Source of the DNA: Candidatus Saccharimonadota bacterium | GTDB lineage: Bacteria; Patescibacteriota; Gracilibacteria; UBA4473 | Length of the DNA stretch: 32,000 bases | Direction of reading: 5' to 3' | Assembly (NCBI GenBank): GCA_963677105.1 | Contig: OY781871.1 | Span: forward strand, 810,001 to 842,000 | Shown: positions 3,237 to 26,621 of the stretch, in pieces | How positions within the stretch are numbered: position 1 is the stretch's first letter | Layout of the letters: each line of letters begins with the position of its first letter | Program-made: the position numbers and the translations under genes | Notes under the pieces: generated by a model | The model's input: the letters and a program-made list of their open reading frames with translations, nothing else | Databases searched by the model: none | Told to the model about the DNA's origin: nothing

Positions 3237-3283
3237 CCTCGAAAAAGTAGCATTTTTTTGAAATTTTGGCAAAATCTAAGAAG

Positions 3284-4789
3284 ATGAGGAAAATATTTTT
3301 GGCTTTCAGTATACTTGTTCTTACAAGTCTAAATTATACATACGCAGAAGAAAGTGCAGTTGAGATTGTAGAGCAGGTTTTACAACCAGTTATTACAGTT
3401 GATTCGTTTGTTCCAATAGGAGAAAAAGTTCTTTTTGATGCAACAAATTCAGGATTACTTGCGCCATCTGCAGGAGTACCAGTTTATGCATGGAATTTTG
3501 GTGATGGAAGTCGTATGAAATGGGGATCTCAAGTTGGATATCAATTTGATAAAGCAGGACGATACACAGTACGTTTACAATTACGACAAGGAAGACAGAG
3601 GGAAGTAATAGAGCGGACAATTTCAGTGTTTAATCGTCGAGCAGTATTAGTTGCAGATCCAGATTTTGATGCTTCAGGATTAATTGAACGTGCTGGAAAA
3701 TATGGAATTTGGCTTGATGTTATACCATTTTCACGTTCTGTTTCAGGAGTGACAGCAGATGAGCAATTTATGAAGAAACTGCAAATAAAACAATCGTTTA
3801 TTGAACAGGCAGATTTAATTATTTTTTACACAGAAAATTCAGGAGGAGTTCAGGGAGTTGCACAATGGTGGAAAGGGTTGCCAGAAGAAAATAGATTTAA
3901 TCCTACACATAAGTTTTGGGTTCAAGTCTCAACTGGATCACTTTCACAATTGCGGAAATTATCACAACCAGGATTTGGGATATTGCAACCAGAAAAAATA
4001 TTACTTACGCGACCAGAGGCGTTAGATGTCATTTTTGCTGCAGCAAAAATGGAATCAGTGGCAAATGAGTTGCGAGCAAGAGGTGTAGAATCTCAAATAT
4101 TAGATGATCGTGTGAGTGCATCATGGTTCTTGCCAATTTCTCGAACAATGACGTATTTCGTAACACATGGAGTAACGCAAAGTGTTCTCTTTTTATTGTT
4201 AGTAGTGCCTTTTATAACTTTTTTAATTGCGTTTGCTAGACAAGTTATTGGATTACGAACATTTGGTGTTTATGCCCCATTAATGCTGACTTTGTCGTTT
4301 ATTTTATTAGGATTTAGATTTGGTTTTGCCGTATTTTCTGTAGTATTGATTGTGAGTTATTTGATTCGATTATTATTCGATAAAGTTGAGTTGCTCTATA
4401 TTCCAAAAATTTCATTACTTTTGTCGGCATTAGCGCTTTCATTTTTTCTTGTTCTGGGAGTAGCAGTGCAATTTGATACACAAACAAATTTAGCATTAGC
4501 TGTTTTCCCGATGTTGGTAATGTCAACAATATCAGAGAAATTTTTGTCTGCACAATCTGAAGGAGGACTAAAATCAGCCGTACAAATAGCAGGAGAAACA
4601 GTAATCGTTTCATTATTGGCATTCATGTTTGTTCAGTGGAATTGGATGCAAAATTTAATACTTGCGTTTCCTGAAATAATGTTACTTCCAATTCTAGGAT
4701 GTATTTGGATTGGACGATGGACAGGATTGCGGTTGACTGAATATTTTCGGTTTTCAGCCTTATTTCGTGATGACTCCAGAGAAGAATGA
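3284..4789 (+). CDS. Secreted PKD-domain protein fused to a C-terminal 7TM module of the type usually fused to an inactive transglutaminase
   Basis: Signal peptide MRKIFLAFSILVLTSLNYTYAEE. PKD-like segment at nt 3386-3631 with WNFGDGS and GRYTVRL. About seven hydrophobic helices lie at nt 4172-4720, with RQVIGLRTFGVYAPLML and the terminal GRWTGLRLTEYFRF characteristic of that 7TM family. The track start at 3266 is TTG, so the ATG at 3284 is preferred. The stop overlaps the next start (ATGA). Confidence 0.75.
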   Translation: MRKIFLAFSILVLTSLNYTYAEESAVEIVEQVLQPVITVDSFVPIGEKVLFDATNSGLLAPSAGVPVYAWNFGDGSRMKWGSQVGYQFDKAGRYTVRLQLRQGRQREVIERTISVFNRRAVLVADPDFDASGLIERAGKYGIWLDVIPFSRSVSGVTADEQFMKKLQIKQSFIEQADLIIFYTENSGGVQGVAQWWKGLPEENRFNPTHKFWVQVSTGSLSQLRKLSQPGFGILQPEKILLTRPEALDVIFAAAKMESVANELRARGVESQILDDRVSASWFLPISRTMTYFVTHGVTQSVLFLLLVVPFITFLIAFARQVIGLRTFGVYAPLMLTLSFILLGFRFGFAVFSVVLIVSYLIRLLFDKVELLYIPKISLLLSALALSFFLVLGVAVQFDTQTNLALAVFPMLVMSTISEKFLSAQSEGGLKSAVQIAGETVIVSLLAFMFVQWNWMQNLILAFPEIMLLPILGCIWIGRWTGLRLTEYFRFSALFRDDSREE

Positions 4790-7089
4790 GTTTTTTTCAA
4801 CGAGCAAATCGGATATTAGGCATGAACGCGCGTAATCTAGAATACGTTGCTCGACACAATTCTTTTGCAGATAAAAAATTCGCAGATGATAAAATTTTTA
4901 CCAAAAATTTTTTGTCATCACGTGGTATTGGAGTGGCAAAATTATTTCATGTAATACGCTCTCATACACAAGTAACACCAGAGTTTATAAAATCTTTACC
5001 GAGTGCATTTGTTATAAAACCAAATCGTGGGTTTGGAGGAGGAGGAATTTATGTATTTTTGGAAAAACAAAATGAAAAATGGATCACTCCATCAGGAGAG
5101 AAGTTCGATGTAAATGATATTTTTCGTCATTGTATTGATATTTTAGAAGGAAAATATTCTATTTCGGGAGTACAAGACAGTGTTATTTTTGAAGAAGTAC
5201 TTGTGGCACATTCTGCATTTCGTTCTTTGACAGAAATAGGATTGCCAGATATTCGTGTAATTGTATTTAATCGTGTTCCAGTTTTAGCAATGTTACGAAT
5301 TCCGACAGAAGAATCTGAAGGAAAAGCGAATATGGAGCTTGGAGCATATGGAATGGGAATAGATTTATCTACCGGAAAAACTACTGGCGCAGCCTATCAT
5401 TCTAAATTTTTAAAAAAATTACCAAATGGAGAGCCTACAGTAGGATTTGAAGTTCCATTTTGGGACGAAATTTTATTAGCGGCAGCACGAGTACAACATA
5501 CAACAGGAATTGGGTTTTTAGGATGTGATTTTGTAGTGGTTCCATCAGGAGTAAAGGTGTTGGAAGTAAATGCTCGACCAGGATTAAAAATTCAAATAGC
5601 AAATAATACGCCGTTAAAACCTCGTTTGAAAAAAGTAGCAGATTTGAATATTGCGTCTCCAGAAGATGGAGCAAAAATAGCAAAACAATTATTTGCACAA
5701 ACTGTTTCAGTAGACTCATCAAAACCAAAACGAGAAGTAATCGGTGCGATTGAGTCAGTCGTATTAAATCTTTCTTCTCCAGAAATGGTATTAGCAAAAG
5801 TAGATTTAGGTGCCTCAGCGAACATTATTTCTGCTCGTTTTGCAACAGAGATAAAAGGTCTTTTGGACATAACAATTGGAGGACAACGTTTAAAATTACC
5901 AGTAAAAGAAGGGGAAACAGGGGAGTTTGACTTGCTCTTAGCTGGAAAATTTTTAACTGATTTTCTTATTGATGTGAACAAAAAAGTTGAACACTCTCCG
6001 GAGCTTATTGCTGCGGATTTAGATGAACGAAAATTAAAAAGTTTAGATGAAAAAGTATCAGAGATAGATGAGCAAATAAAACTTTTATCTGTTCTCAATC
6101 CGAGGAATTTATTGGAACAAAAAGAATTATTTTTTGCTCATAAAGATTATGTTCCTCGATTTCTTTATCGTGCTATTGAGTTAGACATTGATCGTTTTCG
6201 CAGAGAGTTAAAACGATTACCAACTAATATAGATCATATATTGGTTCCATTATTTAAAAATAAAATCCAAGAATTATCATATAAATTGGACTTAATTGAA
6301 GCACGAGAAACAGATCATTTTTCACAAGCCTCAGAAGTTTTATTTGGAAAAGTAACACAATCTCTGTATCGAGAAGCAGTAGATTTCATAAAGAAACATG
6401 CAAAAATTCTGGCAGACACGAGTTTAGTCGTTGATGCAAAGGGAGCGGCGGCGGTGGTTGAAAATTTTTGTAAGAAAAATAAATTGGGACATTGGACGGT
6501 TTCAATCATTAATGATTCTGTGGCAGATATGCAGGTTTCCAAAAAAGGGAAAGTGCTCATTCGGAAAGATGCGACCTTTACTGAAAACAGATTAACAGCG
6601 TTATTAGTACATGAAATTGGAACACATGTGTTTCGATTTGAAAATGGAAAACGACAAAAATTCCGATTATTTGAGCGTGGAACAGCTGGATATTTAGAAA
6701 CAGAAGAAGGATTGGCGATTTATAATCAAAACCAATTAGGACTTCCTTTAGGTGAAAAATTCCTTACGCCGGCATTATTGGTTGTTGCGATTTTCTTGGC
6801 GAAAAAGATGGGGTTTCGTGAGTTATTTGAAATTCTACAACAAACCTATTCTTTATCCGATGAAGTTGCATGGAAGCTGTGTGTAAAGGCAAAACGTGGA
6901 ACGGCGGATCAATCAAAACCAGGTTCATTTACTAAAGATTTGGCATATTTCAAGGGAGAACGTGCAATTGAAAAGTTCGTAGAAAATGGGGGAGATATTC
7001 AGAGTTTATACATTGGAAAAGTAACTATTGCTGATCTAAAAGCACTGAAAAAGTTTGATGACATGGTAAAGCCGAAATGGAGTTTATAA
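4786..7089 (+). CDS. Three-domain fusion: RimK-related (alpha-L-glutamate-ligase-like) ATP-grasp, retropepsin-like DUF785 domain, and DUF1704/QEGLA (MATCAP-like) metallopeptidase
   Basis: aa 1-290: ILGMNARNLEYVARHN..FADDKIFTKNFL, VIKPNRGFGGGGI and LEVNARPGL are ATP-grasp hallmarks. aa 317-399: MVLAKVDLGASANIISA ... DLLLAGKFLTDFLIDV resembles the DUF785 pattern AKIDTGA...LLGR..L..F.VD. aa 418-767: LNPRNLLEQKELFF..PRFLYR, HEIGTH (nt 6610-6627) and ETEEGLA (nt 6697-6717) match DUF1704/QEGLA. Confidence 0.8.
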   Translation: MSFFQRANRILGMNARNLEYVARHNSFADKKFADDKIFTKNFLSSRGIGVAKLFHVIRSHTQVTPEFIKSLPSAFVIKPNRGFGGGGIYVFLEKQNEKWITPSGEKFDVNDIFRHCIDILEGKYSISGVQDSVIFEEVLVAHSAFRSLTEIGLPDIRVIVFNRVPVLAMLRIPTEESEGKANMELGAYGMGIDLSTGKTTGAAYHSKFLKKLPNGEPTVGFEVPFWDEILLAAARVQHTTGIGFLGCDFVVVPSGVKVLEVNARPGLKIQIANNTPLKPRLKKVADLNIASPEDGAKIAKQLFAQTVSVDSSKPKREVIGAIESVVLNLSSPEMVLAKVDLGASANIISARFATEIKGLLDITIGGQRLKLPVKEGETGEFDLLLAGKFLTDFLIDVNKKVEHSPELIAADLDERKLKSLDEKVSEIDEQIKLLSVLNPRNLLEQKELFFAHKDYVPRFLYRAIELDIDRFRRELKRLPTNIDHILVPLFKNKIQELSYKLDLIEARETDHFSQASEVLFGKVTQSLYREAVDFIKKHAKILADTSLVVDAKGAAAVVENFCKKNKLGHWTVSIINDSVADMQVSKKGKVLIRKDATFTENRLTALLVHEIGTHVFRFENGKRQKFRLFERGTAGYLETEEGLAIYNQNQLGLPLGEKFLTPALLVVAIFLAKKMGFRELFEILQQTYSLSDEVAWKLCVKAKRGTADQSKPGSFTKDLAYFKGERAIEKFVENGGDIQSLYIGKVTIADLKALKKFDDMVKPKWSL

Positions 7090-11141: not shown

Positions 11142-11227
11142 GCTCGGGTGGTGGAACGGTAGACACAGGAGACTTAAAATCTCCCGCTCTCACGGGCGTG
11201 CGGGTTCGATTCCCGCCTCGAGCACCA
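11142..11227 (+). tRNA. tRNA-Leu (anticodon UAA), type II with long variable arm, CCA encoded
   Basis: Acceptor GCTCGGG/CTCGAGC. Anticodon arm GGAGA-CTTAAAA-TCTCC. T arm GCGGG-TTCGATT-CCCGC. Discriminator A followed by CCA. 86 nt. Confidence 0.9.
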
Positions 11228-11229
11228 CG

Positions 11230-11270
11230 AAAACATCTTTTATCCCTTGGGGTTGTGGATGTTTTTATCT
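11230..11270 (+). terminator. Hairpin after tRNA-Leu(UAA)
   Basis: AAAACATC (11230-11237) pairs with GATGTTTT (11258-11265). It is followed by TATCTT. Confidence 0.4.
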
Positions 11271-11335
11271 TACGGAATATATTTAAAAATAATTTGTTTT
11301 TTTCAGCTTTCTGATTACTATCTGACTACCAATTT

Positions 11336-11419
11336 GCGCGGGTGGTGAAATGGTAGACACGCTGGTCTTAGGAACCAGTGCCGCAAGGCGTGGAGGTTCG
11401 AGTCCTCTCCCGCGTACCA
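11336..11419 (+). tRNA. tRNA-Leu (anticodon UAG), type II, CCA encoded
   Basis: Acceptor GCGCGGG/CCCGCGT with a G1-U72 wobble. Anticodon arm CTGGT-CTTAGGA-ACCAG. T loop TTCGAGT. 84 nt. Confidence 0.88.
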
Positions 11420-11566
11420 CGTCGGAATAATCTGTGTTTGTTCCGTTTTTTGTTACACAAAAAAGCTTCACTGCTTCGCTATTCCTTCTCCTTAAATCAA
11501 AAAATCAAAACACATTTTGTCAGTTATTTTGGGAATTTTGATTTAATAAAAGAAAGGCAAAAAAGA

Positions 11567-11598
11567 TTTGAACTTTGTAGTTTGAAAATTGATATTTG
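11567..11598. repeat. Dispersed intergenic word cluster, copy C
   Basis: Contains TTTGAACTTTG (11567-11577), TTGTAGTTTGAA (11575-11586), TTGAAAATTGA (11582-11592) and TGATATTTG (11590-11598). Adjacent to the GTCCCGC hairpin. Confidence 0.6.
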
Positions 11599-11600
11599 GA

Positions 11601-11616
11601 GTCCCGCTAGCGGGAC
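11601..11616 (-). terminator. GC hairpin immediately after tRNA-Cys
   Basis: GTCCCGC-TAG-CGGGAC has the same stem sequence as the hairpin at 7823-7839. It lies 4 nt downstream of the tRNA-Cys 3' end on the minus strand. Confidence 0.45.
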
Positions 11617-11620
11617 GAAT

Positions 11621-11694
11621 TGGAGGCGCCATCCGGATTTGAACCGGAGTACAAGGCTTTGCAGGCCTCTGCGTAACCACTCCGCCATGGCGCC
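11621..11694 (-). tRNA. tRNA-Cys (anticodon GCA), CCA encoded
   Basis: The reverse complement is GGCGCCA...CTGCAAA...TTCAAAT...TGGCGCC-T-CCA. 74 nt cloverleaf with discriminator U. Confidence 0.9.
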
Positions 11695-11716
11695 ATCGCT
11701 CGCGAATACTATCTAA

Positions 11717-17090: not shown

Positions 17091-18233
17091 TTATCGAATC
17101 TTTCTTCGCATAAATGCTGGTGTTTCCAGTTCAGCTTCAAGTTCAGATTTATCGTCTCCTAATGTGAAAGCTTTTCTCATTAATGCAGAATGTCCAGCTG
17201 GTTTCTTTTTATCAGTGTCGGAAAATCCAGTTGCAATAACTGTAATTTTCATCTCACCAGTATAGTTTTCATTGATAACAGCACCGAAGATAATGTTTGC
17301 TTCAGGATCAGCAGCCTCAGTAATTGTTTTTGCCGCTTCATCAACTTCAAACATTGAAAGATCGCTTCCTCCAGTAATATTGAATAAAATTCCTTTTGCT
17401 CCATTGATTGACTGATCAAGAAGAGGAGATTCGATAGCTGCTTTTGCCGCTTCGATTGCTCGGTTTTCACCAGCTCCGTAACCAATTCCCATCAACGCAG
17501 TTCCTGCTCCACTCATGATTGAGCGAATATCTGCAAAGTCCACATTAATTAATCCGTGTAATGTAATTAAATCTGCAATTCCTTGCACTCCTTGTCGTAA
17601 TACTTCATCCACAACGCTAAATGCATCAGTGATTGGTGTTTGACGATCGATAATAGAAAGGATTCGGTCGTTTGGAATAGTAATTAATGTATCAACATTT
17701 TTTGCTAATTCCTCGTGACCCAGTGTCGCTTTTTTACTTCGAGATTGTCCTTCGAATGAAAATGGTTTTGTTACCACTCCTACAGTAAGTGCTCCGAGTT
17801 CTCGTGCAATTTGTGCTACAACTGGTGCAGCTCCTGTTCCAGTTCCTCCACCAAGTCCACAAGTGATAAATACCATATCTGCTCCCTTGAGTGCTGATTT
17901 TAATTCTTCAACAGATTCCTCAGCAGCATTTTTCCCAATATCAGGATTTGCTCCTGCTCCAAGTCCACGAGTTGCTTCCATTCCAATGTGTACCTTTGTT
18001 TCTGATTTTGAGTGATACAAAGATTGAGCATCAGTATTTATTGAAACAAATTCTACATTTGCAAAATCAGAGCTTGCCATACGATTTACAGCATTGCATC
18101 CACCACCACCGACACCAACAACTTTGATGTTTGCGATAGGAGAAATGGCTGGATCAACTCGCATTGATGCAGAAGAAGCTACAGCCGGACCTTTTCGGCT
18201 ATTATCGATTGCGGATTGGAGTAAGTCTTTCAT
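17091..18233 (-). CDS. ftsZ: Cell division GTPase FtsZ
   Basis: [15 protein letters not shown] and the tubulin signature [17 protein letters not shown]-terminal linker is followed by the conserved tail ETPAFMRRK. Confidence 0.95.
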
Positions 18234-18269
18234 TGTGTGTGGGGGAAAAGGGGAATACGTGAGGGAAAA

Positions 18270-19502
18270 TTAGGGAAGAAGTCGTTTAAAGAAATCTATA
18301 ACGGAATCTCCAATGTTACCAAAATTAAAATTTAGTAACGAAGAACGAGAAGTTCCGTATCGTTGAGCAAAGTGGAGAAGACCGATTACGGTAGCAAATC
18401 CAGGATCATCAACACGATCAATAATTCCCTCGATATCACGAGGACATCCAATTTGAACCGGAAGTTGCAATACTTCACGAGCTAGTTCTACTGTTCCTGG
18501 CATTTTTACAGTACTTCCACAAAGAACAACACCGGCTGGCAAAGCTCCCGCTCGATCAATTGATTCAAGTTCATCTCGAACCATTAAGAAAATTTCATGA
18601 TATCGTGCTTCAATAATTTGAGACATTTGTTTTTTTGAAACAGTGTGAGCATCAGTACGAGAAATTTGTGTAAGATCGATTTCTTCTCGATCAGAAATTT
18701 CTGATGGCTGACATGTTCCGTATTCAATTTTCAATTTTTCAGCAGTGTCAATCGCTGCTCGTGCTCCAATAGCAATATCGTTTGTGATGTGTTCTCCTCC
18801 AACCGGAATAACAGAAGAATAAATTACAGATCCTTCTTCAAAAACAGCTAAACTTGTTGATCCTGAACCAACTTCTACGACAACACTTCCGAGTTCTTTT
18901 TGTTTTCTTTCAAGAACAGATTCTGCTGCAGCAAGATGTGATGGAACAATTTCTTCAATATTAATTCCTGTTTGATATAGACATTTTTCAAGATTTCGAA
19001 TAGCGGCTCGCTGTCCAGTAATAATGTGTGTTTCAACCTCAAGTCGAATCCCAGACATACCAACAGGATATTTAACCTGATGCTGAGAATCTACAGAAAA
19101 ACTTCGTGGAATAGTACGTAATATTTCTCGATTTGCCGGAAGGCTTACTGCTCGTGCAGCATCAAGAACACGATCCACATCATCTTCGGTGATTTCTGCG
19201 CTATTTCCATTTATTGCAATTACTCCTCGAGAATCAAACGTTTCAATGCTTGACCCAGAAAAGCTTACAAACACTCTATGAATTGGTTCGCCGCTCATTC
19301 GTTCGGCCTCTTCAATAGCAGCAGAAATACATCCAACAGCTTCATCCATGTCAGAAATAATTCCACGACGAATTCCGGATGAAGGAGCTGATCCGACACC
19401 GATAATATTAACAAGAGGTTTTTTGTCTTCTACGACACCAACTACAACACGGATACGCGAAGATCCAATGTCGAGGGCTGTAAATATTTTTTGTTGTGAC
19501 AT
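18270..19502 (-). CDS. ftsA: Cell division protein FtsA (actin-like ATPase)
   Basis: Phosphate-1 ALDIGSSRIRVVVG. Phosphate-2 VVEVGSGSTSLAVFEEG. ADENOSINE-motif region GVVLCGSTVKMPG. Lies directly upstream of ftsZ. Confidence 0.92.
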   Translation of the reverse strand: MSQQKIFTALDIGSSRIRVVVGVVEDKKPLVNIIGVGSAPSSGIRRGIISDMDEAVGCISAAIEEAERMSGEPIHRVFVSFSGSSIETFDSRGVIAINGNSAEITEDDVDRVLDAARAVSLPANREILRTIPRSFSVDSQHQVKYPVGMSGIRLEVETHIITGQRAAIRNLEKCLYQTGINIEEIVPSHLAAAESVLERKQKELGSVVVEVGSGSTSLAVFEEGSVIYSSVIPVGGEHITNDIAIGARAAIDTAEKLKIEYGTCQPSEISDREEIDLTQISRTDAHTVSKKQMSQIIEARYHEIFLMVRDELESIDRAGALPAGVVLCGSTVKMPGTVELAREVLQLPVQIGCPRDIEGIIDRVDDPGFATVIGLLHFAQRYGTSRSSLLNFNFGNIGDSVIDFFKRLLP

Positions 19503-21514: not shown

Positions 21515-21706
21515 ATGAAATCGAAAAAAACAGCTCAAAAGATAAAAATGGAATTAAAAGGCCAGGATCGAATGATGTCTGCATTGAAAGATATTATGAA
21601 AAAATATGCAAAACAAACGGAAACTTTTATCCAAAAAGAAGACTCAGATACGGTAGAACATTTGCTTCAAGAATTTCCTAATACCGAAAACGATGTCTCG
21701 CTTTGA
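21515..21706 (+). CDS. Small hypothetical protein (63 aa), overlapping the start of the giant ORF
   Basis: The ATG ORF encodes a helical-looking Lys/Glu-rich peptide. Its TGA (21704-21706) lies 14 nt inside the next gene. A competing frame (ATG 21506..21681) has a less protein-like sequence. Confidence 0.35.
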   Translation: MKSKKTAQKIKMELKGQDRMMSALKDIMKKYAKQTETFIQKEDSDTVEHLLQEFPNTENDVSL

Positions 21707-24700
21707 TTCGGATGAGAGGGAATACGTTCAAGATAGATTGAAAGAAATTAAAAAATCTCTGGATGATTTGAAGGCAGAAGTGGAAGTTTCTAGAAGTGAT
21801 GAAAAAAAGATTGAACGGAGAAGAAAGGAAATGAAGAAGATGGTGAAAGCGTGTAAGAAATCTCTTGGGCTGCGCAGACGAGAGTCTCTTACACGAGAGC
21901 AAAAAGAAGACTTACATCTTTTGTCTACAGAATTTTATAGTGAAGAATATGAAGATTTAGACAGATTTAAAGAAGAGTTTCAGGAATTATCTTCCCAGCA
22001 ACAGATAGAGTTTGCTTATAATCAAGTATCAATGTCTTGGAGAGAAAAACGAAGGTTTTTTGAAAATATGGAATTGTATCAAGAGACAGGAGTTCCTGTG
22101 GCAGATATATTAAAATTAGTCGCGATAGAAGAATATGTAGAACAGGGAGAAGTGAAACTGGATATTTTTGGAAATCAACATGCTCCTTGGAATACACCGA
22201 ATGTTATAGAAATATTACCAGGTGGCTTAGAAAAGGCTCGTACGGAAATATCAGGATATTATGAAGTAGCGCTTTTAGTTGCACCTTTTACCAATCCTAC
22301 AGAAATTCTGTATAAAATAGATAATTTATCAAATGAAATTGATCGACCAGAAGTACAAAAAATTATAGAAATTGTTCATCAAAAAAATCCTGAAGGGATT
22401 ATGAATGAGTATTCAGAAAAAAATCCTCGAGCATATATTGATAAGAAGAAAAATGCAGCAGATGTATTACTTCTTCCGGCACAAAATCCACAGACAGCAA
22501 AAGATTTCTTTTCTTATTTTAATACAATAATTAAAAACTCATTTACAGAGAATGATTCAGAGAATAATAAACGATTAGAATCTGTTTTAAAGACGGCGAG
22601 TGAAAATGTATCAGAAGAAGATGAAGCAATAACAGAATTAATCAATATTGTTCTTTCAAATAAAGAATGGAATTCTGCAGAAGAGAAAACAAAACAAATA
22701 ATTGAATCAATTTCGAATTATGATTTATCAAAAATTAAGATATACACAGAAACAAAAGAAGTTGATGTCGAAGCAGCTCCATTTCCGTCACTCATTATTC
22801 CTCATTTAGGATTTCGTTTAGCGTTATCATTATTTCCAGAAGTTTATCCTCAAATAAAAGAAATTACTGGCAATGAATTAGGAAAAAAAATAACAACGCA
22901 GATCATACAACAAAATTTGCAGAATCGAGAACGTGTAGATGAAGTGTTGACTTCAAGTAACGTAGGTACAATGACGAAGGATTCAGAAGAAGTGTACAAA
23001 GACAACAATGTATTAAAAATGTTTGCAGAGACGGGTGATTTGGATGAAATATTAAATTATGTAGAAACAATAGACGATAGTTATTGGTGTAAAGCTGTTA
23101 TATTAGAAAATTTTTCTTCCGAAATGAAACGGAAAGATTTTCAGAAAATAGATGAAGATGGAAATGGGGAAGACACAGTTGCTGAACTTCTGTTTTCACA
23201 ACTTTCTTTTAATGAGGCACAAAAACATTTTCCAGCTTATTGTGAAAAATTAGGAATAGAAAAAGCTTCAGTATTGATGAAACCAATTTTTGAAAAAGCG
23301 TGGAAAAATAATACATATAATTCAAGAAACAGTTTTACATTTCTTCTTGCTTATTGTACGGAAGACGCTGGATACACCGACGAAATTTTTTCAAGTCTTG
23401 TAAAAGTTATGATTGATATAGATCGACCAAGAGTGATACAAGAATATCATTATTTTAAAGGAGAAAATGGGAATTGGCCACAAGATCACGAAAAGAGATT
23501 TTGTTCTTCCATACAGGAATTAATACCTTCTTTGTGTGCGAAAGAATATGGGGATTATTTTGAGCAACGTAAAATACAGGAAGATTTGGAAGCACCAAAA
23601 TTGAATATTGATGAAATTCATCGGAGTGATCTCTCTGAAAATTTATTAACATATTATGAAAATTTTACTGAAGAATTGGGAAAAGAGGAAGGAGAAGAAG
23701 CATTTCGTTTACTGTTGCAAGAATCCGGAAAAGTAACATCGTTATTTTATAATTTAAATTGGGAAAAGTTTTCACAAGACAAACAAGAATTTTTTGTAAA
23801 AACATGGATTAAATTCGATTCAGAGAAGCCAATTTATCGCTTAAATAAAATGCCTGATAGTTTGCAAGCATTTGTTGTGGAAATTTATTCAGATAAATAT
23901 ATAGACCGAGTTGGAAGTAAGGGTATTTGTTCGATCTTACCAAAATATTACAAAAAGATATCAGAAACAGAGGGGACAGGGGAAGCACAAAGAAAGGTTG
24001 TGGAATTACTACAAACAATGTCGGATGTAGAAAAGGTTCTTGATTATCATTATTGGAATTATGAAATGCCAAAGGACTTACAAAAACTCGTTATAAAAAC
24101 AGTGGTTCCATTGGCGCCGGAAAAGATAATATCTAATTATGATGATGTTGATTATCGTATGCGTGAAAAGGAAGTGCTTCCAATTTTATTACAGGGACAT
24201 AGAGAGCTCTGTATAAAACATTTTGATAAAATAGATTCTTACTTACATGGTGTTGACGATTTAGTTATAGATAAATTTTTTGGGAATGATCCTCAAAAGA
24301 CAATGAAAGAAATTCTTCTTACAAAGAGTGGAGTCGAGAAATCTAAATTAGAGAAAATATTTTCTCAGGCAGCAAAAAAAGAATTTTCATTTTTTCCAGA
24401 GACCTATGGAAATAGAGCGTATTTGAATATTTCAAATCGGAAAAAGCAAACAATTATTCATAAGCCAAATGAAGAAAAGTTTTTGCATGCGTGTTTGGTA
24501 GAAATGGTTGGAACAGGGGGAAAAGCAGGACTGATATTAGAACTTCTTGAGCGTCAAGGGTTTAATGTAAATATGTTTGATGATGGAGATCAAGTGTGGT
24601 TTGAGAATCAAGAATTTCATGTTCAAAGAGCAAAAGATGAGAGTATTGAAAGAGTGACATTGTATTGTGCTCGAGAAGACTTAAAAGGTTTAGGAGATTG

Positions 24701-26621
24701 GGATAAGGATAGCTGTTTGAGGTCACTAGGAGAAAAAGAAATAGTAAAAAGGGCGAAGAGAGGCGCAATGGAAGAAGTATTAGAGAATCTTCCAAATGTG
24801 GATGGATATTTTAAGAGAGATTTTATAAAAATATTTAATAAGCTTTCGTACTCTTTTGCACTAGAAACACTTCCTGATGATAATCTGCCGAATGGAACGC
24901 CCGAAATAGATATTAGTAAAAATCAATTAAGATGTTTGGCTAAAGTGTATCCTGATTTTATTTTGAAAAATATAGAAGTGTTATTAAACAATCACTTTAT
25001 TAAAGTGAATTGTATAGATTTGCTAACCGGACTTGGACCTTTTTCACCAGAGCTTTTTTGGGAAAAATTTGAGGTTATAAAAAAATATGCATTAGAGACA
25101 CCAACCAAGAAAAAACATGGAAATAATTCACCGGATTATTCATTGATGTCGGATATGTTTCTAAAATTGGCAAAGCAAAAAGAGGGAGGAAAAGAAATAT
25201 TTAAAAATATGGGAATAGTGAAAGCGTGTGTAAGTAATGAGGAGTATTTAACAGAAATATTTAAAGGAGCTGCTAAAACAGCGCCAGCAAATGCGTTGAA
25301 ACAGGAAATACTTTCTGAATACAAAGATTTTCTACAGGGAAAAGAAATCATAAACAGAGCCATAGAGTATGCTGAAAATGATGAGAAATTTATGTCGATT
25401 TTTGTATCTGCTCCAACGTATTATACCGAGTCGTATAAAGAAAAACTTACGTCAATTGCTATTAGACATTCGGAAAAGACAATGGCAATCCTTCAATCTC
25501 AGGAAGTGAAAAATGTATGGGAAGGAGCTGGACTTACAAATGTAAGAGAATATTTTGTGAAACAAGTTGAGCGTGAACTCATTAAAAATGAAGTTTATAC
25601 ATTTATTGAAAATAATCCTTCAAAACACCCTCAAGATTTAAAATCGGACCCAACATTAGAATATTATCCAGAAATCAGAGATACATGGATTACTTCGAAT
25701 GAACATTTCAAAAGTAGACCAAAATTAAAACTTCGTTTTGATCCTTCTTGTCGAAAAGAATTAAATTCACCAAAAGCTATTAAACGAAGAAAACTCTTAA
25801 TTGCTCGATATTTGGGGTTGAGAAATAAAGATTTGAATCCATCAGATATTACTCCAGAAATGGTACAAGAAGCAGATTATAAAATATTTGAGGCAAAGCA
25901 AAAGAAATACAATAAGCCTTTATTTCAAGGACGAAATGTAATAGGATATTTCCCATCAAGTGATTTAGGAATAAAATTTGAGAATTTAAAACAAGCGATT
26001 GGTGCGCAACAAACAAATAAAAACGGAGAGGTATCAGGATCGTATATTGACTTTCAAAAAGGAGAAAGATTGAGTGACGGAGCACGTGATCAAATTATCA
26101 ATGCCGATCCGCCTCTTACTTTTATAACGCATAAACATAGTGCAAGTTCAACAGTGCGTGAACTTCAAGATGCATTAATAAAACGATGGGAAAGATTGAC
26201 AGCTGAAGGAGTAGAACCTTCAGAAGAAAATAGAGATTTTCTTGTTGTTGGAGGTTGTGGCATAACGGATGACCTTAGAGATGATCTTTGTAGAGCGATG
26301 AAAAAGAGAGGATATCCTATTCCAGATATTGTTGTAGAAACAGAATATGGACAATATGGATATGCTTATTACAAAAAAGAAAAAAATACGGAATTTGGAT
26401 CATCATTTTTGGATAGAGTAGTTTTTAATAAAAATCCTCAAAAAATTTCTACATTTGGAACTATGTGGGAAAATCGAGATAAATATTATGAGATGAAAGA
26501 CTCGAAAGGAAAATCTGTTCTTCCCGGAAATGCAACATTTTTAAGTGAAGATGAACTTGGGGAATTATTACAAATTGCAATGAATGAAGAAGATGGAGTT
26601 GATGAGTTTGTGAATGTTTAA
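21693..26621 (+). CDS. Giant hypothetical protein (1642 aa), no signal peptide or TM segment, function unknown
   Basis: Uninterrupted 4.9-kb ATG ORF with uniform coding-like composition, flanked by a promoter-like site and a strong terminator. No known family motif recognised by eye, apart from a weak His/Cys dyad pattern near the C-terminus. Confidence 0.8.
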   Translation: MSRFDSDEREYVQDRLKEIKKSLDDLKAEVEVSRSDEKKIERRRKEMKKMVKACKKSLGLRRRESLTREQKEDLHLLSTEFYSEEYEDLDRFKEEFQELSSQQQIEFAYNQVSMSWREKRRFFENMELYQETGVPVADILKLVAIEEYVEQGEVKLDIFGNQHAPWNTPNVIEILPGGLEKARTEISGYYEVALLVAPFTNPTEILYKIDNLSNEIDRPEVQKIIEIVHQKNPEGIMNEYSEKNPRAYIDKKKNAADVLLLPAQNPQTAKDFFSYFNTIIKNSFTENDSENNKRLESVLKTASENVSEEDEAITELINIVLSNKEWNSAEEKTKQIIESISNYDLSKIKIYTETKEVDVEAAPFPSLIIPHLGFRLALSLFPEVYPQIKEITGNELGKKITTQIIQQNLQNRERVDEVLTSSNVGTMTKDSEEVYKDNNVLKMFAETGDLDEILNYVETIDDSYWCKAVILENFSSEMKRKDFQKIDEDGNGEDTVAELLFSQLSFNEAQKHFPAYCEKLGIEKASVLMKPIFEKAWKNNTYNSRNSFTFLLAYCTEDAGYTDEIFSSLVKVMIDIDRPRVIQEYHYFKGENGNWPQDHEKRFCSSIQELIPSLCAKEYGDYFEQRKIQEDLEAPKLNIDEIHRSDLSENLLTYYENFTEELGKEEGEEAFRLLLQESGKVTSLFYNLNWEKFSQDKQEFFVKTWIKFDSEKPIYRLNKMPDSLQAFVVEIYSDKYIDRVGSKGICSILPKYYKKISETEGTGEAQRKVVELLQTMSDVEKVLDYHYWNYEMPKDLQKLVIKTVVPLAPEKIISNYDDVDYRMREKEVLPILLQGHRELCIKHFDKIDSYLHGVDDLVIDKFFGNDPQKTMKEILLTKSGVEKSKLEKIFSQAAKKEFSFFPETYGNRAYLNISNRKKQTIIHKPNEEKFLHACLVEMVGTGGKAGLILELLERQGFNVNMFDDGDQVWFENQEFHVQRAKDESIERVTLYCAREDLKGLGDWDKDSCLRSLGEKEIVKRAKRGAMEEVLENLPNVDGYFKRDFIKIFNKLSYSFALETLPDDNLPNGTPEIDISKNQLRCLAKVYPDFILKNIEVLLNNHFIKVNCIDLLTGLGPFSPELFWEKFEVIKKYALETPTKKKHGNNSPDYSLMSDMFLKLAKQKEGGKEIFKNMGIVKACVSNEEYLTEIFKGAAKTAPANALKQEILSEYKDFLQGKEIINRAIEYAENDEKFMSIFVSAPTYYTESYKEKLTSIAIRHSEKTMAILQSQEVKNVWEGAGLTNVREYFVKQVERELIKNEVYTFIENNPSKHPQDLKSDPTLEYYPEIRDTWITSNEHFKSRPKLKLRFDPSCRKELNSPKAIKRRKLLIARYLGLRNKDLNPSDITPEMVQEADYKIFEAKQKKYNKPLFQGRNVIGYFPSSDLGIKFENLKQAIGAQQTNKNGEVSGSYIDFQKGERLSDGARDQIINADPPLTFITHKHSASSTVRELQDALIKRWERLTAEGVEPSEENRDFLVVGGCGITDDLRDDLCRAMKKRGYPIPDIVVETEYGQYGYAYYKKEKNTEFGSSFLDRVVFNKNPQKISTFGTMWENRDKYYEMKDSKGKSVLPGNATFLSEDELGELLQIAMNEEDGVDEFVNV

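Follow-up and report, generated by a model that had tools for sequence, protein, structure and literature searches.

A glutamate-ending seven-transmembrane protein and its fused ATP-grasp/MATCAP neighbour: a candidate tail-modification pair of Patescibacteria

What does an enzyme act on when one of its domains would add amino acids to a carboxylate and another, on the same polypeptide, would take them off? The question is raised by two genes in a 32,000-nt stretch of DNA (the window) from a Candidatus Saccharimonadota bacterium of the Gracilibacteria (contig OY781871.1, positions 810,001 to 842,000). The first, open reading frame 1 (ORF1), encodes a membrane protein with a seven-transmembrane (7TM) domain. 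The second, ORF2, encodes a fusion of an ATP-grasp ligase, a retropepsin-like domain and a metallopeptidase of the MATCAP family. Both ORFs, and the ATGA stop/start overlap by which a first-pass annotation had joined them, are found in the sequence. That annotation left the substrate open. Here we describe a conserved glutamate-ending tail on the 7TM partner, which is a concrete candidate. The reading that we favour, and hold only tentatively, is that ORF2 is a fused writer and eraser that lengthens and trims an acidic extension on this cytoplasmic -EE tail.

The tail comes first. ORF1 closes with ...GLRLTEYFRFSALFRDDSREE, and the tail as a peptide reads ...FRFSALFRDDSREE. Homologues of ORF1 number 246 and have the same taxonomic range as those of ORF2, the ultra-small bacteria of the candidate phyla radiation (CPR, Patescibacteria). 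The last residue is Glu in 118 of the 120 that were listed, the two exceptions being truncated fragments; in an independent genomic set, all 7TM partners except one end in -EE, -EEE or -EEEE. Over 183 CPR 7TM partners the terminal residue is Glu in 182, and the terminal run is variable: no Glu in 1 protein, one in 40, two in 87, three in 46, four in 8 and five in 1. The run closes a tail of 9-14 residues, the rest of which varies. For background, 612 other ORFs of at least 250 aa from the same loci end in E in 3.4% of cases and in EE in 1.0%.

Two other sources of the ending were considered and rejected. The -EE tail is not a by-product of a ribosome-binding site or of the ATGA overlap, because it is present at every intergenic distance, up to gaps of 1693 nt. 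Nor is it a general feature of the 7TM_transglut family. The last residue of 115 full-length gammaproteobacterial RloB proteins, which carry the same type of 7TM domain, is K, S, D, R and so on, and is E once. The mean net charge of the last eight residues is -2.9 in CPR vs. +0.15 in these RloB proteins, and no MATCAP gene is present in the two gammaproteobacterial rlo operons examined. The glutamate-ending tail is specific to the CPR system.

The fusion and its pairing with the 7TM gene also recur. A scan of one genome per species yielded at least 518 relatives, and the architecture was tabulated with local hidden Markov models (HMMs) for the best 80, all of whose loci are from Patescibacteria. 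ATP-grasp and MATCAP domains share a single ORF at 74 of these 80 loci; the others are cut by contig ends, except for one split gene. Upstream sequence is long enough for a test at 65 loci, and at 59 of them a 7TM gene precedes the fusion on the same strand, in nearly all cases no more than 600 nt away; the pairing was seen as well in three out of three contig look-ups. The gap between the two genes ranges from -4 (ATGA) to +1693 nt, so that translational coupling is common yet not obligatory. At one locus (L035) the gene upstream of the fusion gene is LeuD-like. Full-length ORF2-like proteins of 760-790 aa number more than 120 (identity 45-83%), with Gracilibacteria, Peregrinibacteria, Buchananbacteria and 'Patescibacteria group' as named sources. 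Automated pipelines label them 'DUF1704 domain-containing protein', and the 'standalone' MATCAP representatives that were picked were traced to CPR loci, mostly fusions. Literature searches on the component families found no paper describing this ATP-grasp/MATCAP fusion.

Since architecture and pairing recur in dozens of independent genomes, the features of the locus lie far beyond chance. The gene-neighbourhood survey makes the two genes conserved neighbours, and on that account the pairing put forward in the first-pass annotation holds. It had described a compact two-gene version of the system; compact and fused the locus is, and it belongs to a widespread Patescibacteria family and is not peculiar to the window.

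The modules themselves are known from elsewhere. The triad of ATP-grasp ligase, 7TM protein and retropepsin, found in Pseudomonas and other Gammaproteobacteria, now bears the name rloABC (Lormand et al., mBio 2025, PMC12239564). Its retropepsin, RloA, is secreted and cleaves poly-Glu runs of at least 8 residues. In Pseudomonas, the only source of such phenotypes, the rloA1-3 mutant has hypo-osmotic, antibiotic, biofilm and shape defects, and these are suppressed when either rloB (which encodes the 7TM and inactive transglutaminase domains) or rloC (the ATP-grasp) is deleted (PMC12239564). The triad is therefore not as uncharacterised as the first-pass annotation had it, although its characterisation so far amounts to RloA cleavage and the genetics of rloB and rloC deletion. 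The CPR pair agrees with it, as judged against canonical loci of Legionella and Aeromonas, in having an RloC-type ligase, a homologous 7TM domain and a module of retropepsin fold. The order, 7TM then ligase, is also shared, often with an overlapping stop/start; rloB and rloC of Legionella overlap by 4 nt. The differences are equally definite. ORF1 has a PKD domain and a further domain of about 180 aa where RloB has the inactive transglutaminase. The CPR retropepsin module is cytoplasmic, fused, flap-less and without D-T/S-G, whereas RloA is separate, secreted and active. A MATCAP carboxypeptidase is added, and the 7TM tail has an -EE ending that RloB tails lack. An Aeromonas record among the loci (L005, NZ_AP026896.1), titled 'Aeromonas caviae plasmid pKAM479_3' in PLSDB, has a length of 4.94 Mb and a chromosomal rloABC locus of canonical form; it is apparently a chromosome filed as a plasmid.

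What kind of ligase is it? The best NCBIfam match of ORF2 is TIGR02291 (rimK_rel_E_lig, alpha-L-glutamate ligase-like; E 5e-71 over 298 residues, 6-303), at a score of 239 bits that falls under the equivalog cut-off of 314. PF14397 (ATPgrasp_ST) covers residues 16-284 at E 2.3e-54, and identity to RloC of the Legionella and Aeromonas loci is 38-39%. Membership of the RimK family is not indicated (TIGR00768, 37 bits against a cut-off of 143), and the likeness to RimK is at the level of fold only (Foldseek E about 7e-8). A phmmer search of the PDB with the ATP-grasp domain gave no match. The invariant ATP-grasp residues in 50 homologues include K78, D248, E260 and N262. An AlphaFold2 (AF2) model of ORF2, with 50 homologues as input, is confident, with a predicted local distance difference test score (pLDDT) of 87.8, and has disordered linkers at residues 306-315 and 404-407. 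Foldseek matches of the model include cyanophycin synthetases, RimK and LysX/ArgX, PDB 5zk6 among them. Profile searches thus assign the RimK-related, alpha-L-glutamate-ligase-like ATP-grasp as first annotated, and do the same for the 7TM and PKD domains (TIGR02291, PF14397, PF14402, PKD_4).

The metallopeptidase is equally clear. PF08014 matches residues 449-757 at E 1.4e-44 (153 bits; gathering cut-off 27), and phmmer aligns the domain with human MATCAP (7z5g) at E 7e-17, HEIGTH and TEEGLA included, which bears out the added DUF1704/QEGLA peptidase of the first-pass annotation. The match to TIGR02421 (QEGLA) is at E 2e-49, its 168.8 bits lying below the curated cut-off of 338.65; identity to proteobacterial QEGLA proteins is 26-29%. 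In the AF2 model the domain has the MATCAP fold (Foldseek with 7z5g, E 8e-12, target TM score 0.62-0.68). The gluzincin residues H609, E610, H614, E640 and E641 are invariant in 50 homologues. On acidic tubulin tails, the MATCAP/TMCP enzymes take off C-terminal Tyr and Glu and trim polyglutamate chains; the family's characterised activities, all of eukaryotic enzymes, are on protein tails in every case (PMC10499314). By analogy we infer that the ORF2 domain is a carboxypeptidase that acts on acidic C-terminal tails.

The parallel with the tubulin tail cycle (TTL/TTLL vs. MATCAP/TMCP and CCP) is close in its logic: an ATP-grasp ligase and a MATCAP-family carboxypeptidase, and acidic tails of the form ...EE(Y). 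The MATCAP domain, too, matches the human enzyme directly. In other parts the CPR system, a bacterial one, differs: its ligase is of the RloC/RimK type and not TTL, writer and eraser are fused, and the candidate substrate is a 7TM protein. Bacteria offer a second parallel. The MATCAP family comprises 2653 clusters at 50% identity, mainly standalone proteins of about 350 aa. In Proteobacteria, its members occur in operons with an N-formylglutamate-amidohydrolase-like (FGase) gene and a GshB-like ATP-grasp gene, in the order FGase, QEGLA, ATP-grasp, or are fused to FGase. The operon is found in Alpha- and Betaproteobacteria, with QEGLA/MATCAP proteins of 617-631 aa, and Vibrio sp. HDW18 has a 663-aa FGase-MATCAP fusion; proteobacterial FGase/MATCAP loci of our set are L087 (5496-9193), L088 (5448-9210) and L086 (6110-8101). 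In a published Photobacterium transcriptome, low salinity induces QEGLA and the ATP-grasp gene next to it by 27- to 38-fold (PMC10308900). Here too an ATP-grasp ligase and a peptidase of the MATCAP family are linked genetically; unlike in CPR, the ligase is glutathione-synthetase-like, an N-formylglutamate-amidohydrolase-like module takes part, and there is neither a 7TM partner nor a retropepsin domain. Proteobacterial operons and CPR fusions together make the ligase/peptidase link a recurrent bacterial theme, of which the CPR system, to judge from its domains, is the version built on an Rlo chassis.

How might the pair work? ORF1 would be a sensor- or transporter-like protein whose ectodomain supplies an input signal. 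The ATP-grasp domain of ORF2 would extend a C-terminal carboxylate by amino acids, L-Glu being the most likely, and the MATCAP domain would trim C-terminal residues off acidic tails. The retropepsin-like domain may serve in dimerisation, in tail binding or as a regulatory scaffold, much as RimB partners RimK. The likeliest acceptor would be the 7TM partner's own -EE tail. The length and charge of this tail, and hence the state of the membrane protein, would then depend on how ligation and trimming are balanced. It is typical of regulated modification cycles that one enzyme carries two opposing activities. The variable encoded Glu run fits a tail length that is set post-translationally better than it fits a fixed docking motif. 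The physiological role, by analogy with rloABC, is probably in envelope or osmotic homeostasis.

Hydropathy and the positive-inside pattern predict seven helices for ORF1, with the N-terminus outside and the C-terminal tail in the cytoplasm. An archaeal protein is relevant here: a 589-aa ORF of the Halobacterium sp. DL1 plasmid CP007061 (L089, 5149-6915) has a 7TM_transglut-type domain (residues 61-249) followed by an RloC-type ATP-grasp (residues 283-582) in a single chain. Such a 'Rosetta-stone' fusion supports the cytoplasmic topology of the tail and direct contact of the two parts. The PLSDB table lists no CDS at these positions.

The same archaeal chain brings its ligase to the mouth of the 7TM part, and so lends itself to another explanation: the ATP-grasp domain makes a free acidic peptide (e.g., poly-alpha-Glu), which the 7TM protein exports or presents at the surface, while MATCAP limits its length or clears the product from the cytoplasm. 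The -EE tail would then be a dock, a pseudo-substrate or a primer mimic. The 7TM domains of CPR and Proteobacteria are homologous by profile comparison (ORF1 vs. gammaproteobacterial RloB: hhalign 99%, E 4.6e-18, 195 columns). RimK forms free poly-Glu in vitro (PMC11957791). Secretion of a poly-Glu-cleaving RloA, and suppression of its loss by loss of rloB or rloC, imply an extracytoplasmic product (PMC12239564). Peptide synthesis and export thus fit the Pseudomonas genetics and the archaeal fusion better than tail modification does. The CPR loci, on the other side, have no secreted retropepsin, and a degradative carboxypeptidase fused to the synthase would be wasteful for a product that is exported. 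Pure docking poorly explains a Glu run that varies from 1 to 5 with a constant terminal Glu, and this 7TM family is not known to transport. We consider the free-peptide explanation less likely than tail modification.

Several points that weigh against tail modification should be brought together. At 6 of the 65 loci no 7TM gene is adjacent to the fusion gene (L035, L036, L043, L053, L057 and L069; up to 8 kb searched on each side). The tail cannot be a general acceptor for the RloC family, because the archaeal fusion and the proteobacterial RloB proteins have no free -EE end. The Pseudomonas genetics fit a periplasmic poly-Glu product better than they fit modification of RloB. As for the -EE end, it may be no more than a pseudo-substrate or a motif for docking, and a ligase-peptidase fusion could equally control the length of a free polymer.

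Does the retropepsin-like domain contribute a second eraser? It is visible mainly as a fold. The middle segment of ORF2 has no match in Pfam, PF05618 included, even at E = 10, and a PDB profile search with it gave no match, RloA and DUF785 entries included; its identity rests on structure prediction with Foldseek, and on hhalign. The AF2 model of the domain by itself has a pLDDT of 93.6. Foldseek places first P. fluorescens RloA (9g58, TM score 0.76) and the DUF785 protein Lpg0085 (2pma, 0.75), next P. aeruginosa RloA2 (9g59), and then Ddi1 and the HIV and other retroviral proteases. hhalign with a small DUF785 alignment gives 78% (E 1.8e-5) over G-x-x-E...AK-x-D-x-x-A. More distant CPR relatives have near-canonical C-terminal motifs (...IGRRDL.GFLIDPSK), and one relative has RIDTGA. 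From the Foldseek matches, the hhalign result and these motifs we take the domain to be a homologue of the retropepsin fold.

The active site, however, is degenerate. The domain is about 45 residues shorter than RloA, the flap/hairpin region being absent. Among 197 CPR fusions the catalytic position is Asp in 62%, and D-[TS]-G is found in 5. ORF2 itself reads D-L-G, and in relatives 83% identical to it E or N replaces the Asp. Because the site is degenerate and the flap absent, the domain is probably a pseudo-protease in nearly all members. We do not claim that it binds poly-Glu: of the RloA contacts K46, R92, R114 and R137, only the equivalent of K46 (K338) is clearly kept, the flap contact residues are deleted, and R114 and R137 have no conserved counterparts. 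Thus the DUF785-like segment that was first annotated stands as a fold, with neither a Pfam match nor a canonical D-T/S-G, and of the two peptidases said to be fused to the ligase there is probably one, that with the invariant MATCAP site.

One locus is arranged differently. In the variant operon L041 (4953-9071; CSMAG_1200, a metagenome-assembled genome), one chain joins the ATP-grasp domain to a retropepsin of full length, which has canonical RIDTGA and a long insert, and MATCAP is a separate 371-aa ORF. The 7TM partner there has a basic tail (..RRLIKTRK), the sole one lacking terminal Glu. In its domain arrangement L041 appears to stand half-way from rloABC to the form usual in CPR. As a single locus, it offers a hint that gaining the -EE tail is coupled to losing the protease site.

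A further possibility is that the target is some other cytoplasmic protein. RimK extends the Glu-Glu C-terminus of RpsF (ribosomal protein S6), with RimB as its partner; RpsF is so far the only protein, and so the only bacterial target, known for C-terminal poly-alpha-glutamylation (PMC11957791). The likeness to the CPR pair is evident: an ATP-grasp ligase extending a Glu-Glu end, a partner of retropepsin fold, and an add-and-remove logic on an acidic tail. With a ligase of RimK-type fold and a sensor-like ectodomain on the 7TM protein, one could picture ORF2 modifying S6 or another -EE protein, and the 7TM protein as a membrane sensor that recruits or regulates it. We find this improbable. 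The ligase is RloC type and lies outside the RimK family by HMM, and the gene tightly linked to it in the operon is that of the 7TM protein, whose -EE end is the only conserved one to be seen there. The CPR system also differs from RimK/RimB/RpsF in that its eraser would be a zinc exopeptidase and not an aspartic endopeptidase, that the candidate acceptor is a membrane protein and not S6, and that all activities are on one polypeptide. FtsZ, the tubulin homologue of the window (FtsA-FtsZ gene pair, 17091-19502, minus strand), was considered as a MATCAP substrate and dropped: its C-terminal tail is basic, and so it is not an acceptor of the -EE type.

The ectodomain of ORF1 departs from the Rlo plan. 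The NCBIfam RloB model NF052267 matches ORF1 with its C-terminal 7TM half only (E 2e-20, 72.8 bits; cut-off 900). There is no Pfam match of ORF1 to PF14400, the periplasmic inactive transglutaminase, and the domain of about 180 aa has neither a Pfam match nor a sequence match in the PDB. Compared with the N-domain of RloB, the ORF1 ectodomain gives an hhalign probability of 0.4%, and on this comparison the two ectodomains are unrelated. Thus the triad is not represented by every one of its modules, as had been supposed: ATP-grasp, 7TM and retropepsin fold are present, and the transglutaminase ectodomain has been replaced. Even so, a compact relative of the ATP-grasp/7TM/retropepsin system, with a MATCAP-type peptidase added, remains the right description. 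In a Buchananbacteria locus (L002, 8343-9428) the 7TM partner is just 269 aa and has no ectodomain, and a DUF4015 gene overlaps the 3' end of the fusion gene.

That DUF4015 gene, seen in one lineage, is among the pointers to envelope-precursor chemistry. On this account the ATP-grasp domain would attach an amino acid to the stem peptide of peptidoglycan, to a glycopolymer or to a lipid-linked intermediate; MATCAP would trim it, and flipping or positioning the intermediate would fall to the 7TM protein. The Pfam name of PF14397 is 'sugar-transfer associated ATP-grasp', and rlo mutants have cell-shape and beta-lactam phenotypes (PMC12239564). Glycosyltransferase and murein genes are not conserved beside the pair, however, the -EE tail of a protein is left unexplained, and the known MATCAP-family substrates are, as noted, protein tails. 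We give the idea little credence.

The setting of the pair is simple (Table 1). It is bordered by housekeeping genes of the opposite strand (upstream, dUTPase and TilS; downstream, a GNAT acetyltransferase and ArgS), and therefore the pair forms an operon by itself. Scans for promoters and terminators gave no signal above chance level. The start of ORF1 is taken as the ATG at 3284; an in-frame TTG further upstream, at 3266, is likewise open. The genetic code is standard: TGA terminates 3 of 20 long ORFs and is in frame in none, so that code 25 of Gracilibacteria is ruled out. A role in anti-phage defence was dropped, PADLOC giving no matches. Elsewhere in the window are a 1642-aa ORF (21693-26621, plus strand) with no Pfam family at E <= 1e-4, and a cluster of tRNA-Leu(taa), tRNA-Leu(tag) and tRNA-Cys(gca) (11142-11694), which is overlapped by a 112-aa ORF (11378-11716) that is probably spurious.

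Table 1. Features of the ORF1-ORF2 locus, in window coordinates.
Feature	Position (strand)	Residues	Basis or remark
ORF1	3284..4789 (+)		501-aa membrane protein: signal peptide, PKD, ectodomain, RloB-type 7TM, acidic tail; ORF list, Pfam/NCBIfam
Signal peptide (predicted), MRKIFLAFSILVLTSLNYTYA	3284..3346 (+)		hydrophobic N-terminus before extracellular-type PKD; inferred by reading the sequence
PKD domain, extracellular	3389..3595 (+)	36-104	PF18911 (PKD_4) E 7e-10; PF00801 E 8e-6
Extracellular domain of ~180 aa	3608..4153 (+)	109-290	kept in CPR homologues; sits where RloB has the inactive transglutaminase
7TM domain, 7TM_transglut/RloB type	4175..4762 (+)	298-493	PF14402 E 1.9e-29
Juxtamembrane motif GLRLTEYFRF	4724..4753 (+)		within the 7TM domain
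Cytoplasmic acidic tail FRDDSREE-COOH	4763..4786 (+)		candidate acceptor/substrate
ATGA stop/start overlap, ORF1-ORF2	4786..4789 (+)		read from the sequence; context GAAGAATGAGT
ORF2	4786..7089 (+)		767-aa fusion enzyme, cytoplasmic; ORF list, homologues, AF2 model
RloC-type ATP-grasp amino-acid ligase domain	4801..5694 (+)	6-303	TIGR02291, PF14397, Foldseek, RloC identity
Flap-less retropepsin-like (DUF785/RloA-fold) domain	5734..5973 (+)	317-396	AF2 + Foldseek, hhalign
Degenerate 'DTG' site, reads VDLGAS	5800-5817 (+)		ORF2 middle domain
MATCAP/DUF1704/QEGLA gluzincin carboxypeptidase domain	6046..7056 (+)	421-757	PF08014, phmmer, Foldseek
HEIGTH motif; EEGLA motif	6610-6627; 6703-6717 (+)		MATCAP domain of ORF2

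In closing, what is new relative to rloABC is a ligase, a relic protease and a carboxypeptidase in one soluble protein, beside a 7TM protein that ends in glutamate. The CPR pair is a two-protein system open to reconstitution, with a defined candidate substrate that can be synthesised. Should the tail prove unmodified, it would still be the simplest handle on the products of RloC-type ligases. Should the tail be modified, bacterial C-terminal polyglutamylation would reach beyond S6, the ATP-grasp/MATCAP logic of the tubulin type would have a bacterial precedent, and a highly conserved function of the genome-reduced Patescibacteria would have an explanation. We may go one step further, with more reserve than we attach to the mechanism itself: the 7TM partner is possibly the second bacterial protein known, after S6, and the first membrane protein, whose encoded -EE C-terminus is reversibly extended, here by a fused ATP-grasp writer and MATCAP-type eraser. 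If so, there would be a prokaryotic 'tail code' whose writer and eraser come from the two enzyme superfamilies that serve the tubulin code, and a hint that eukaryotes owe their pairing of ATP-grasp and MATCAP enzymes to bacterial operons of this kind.

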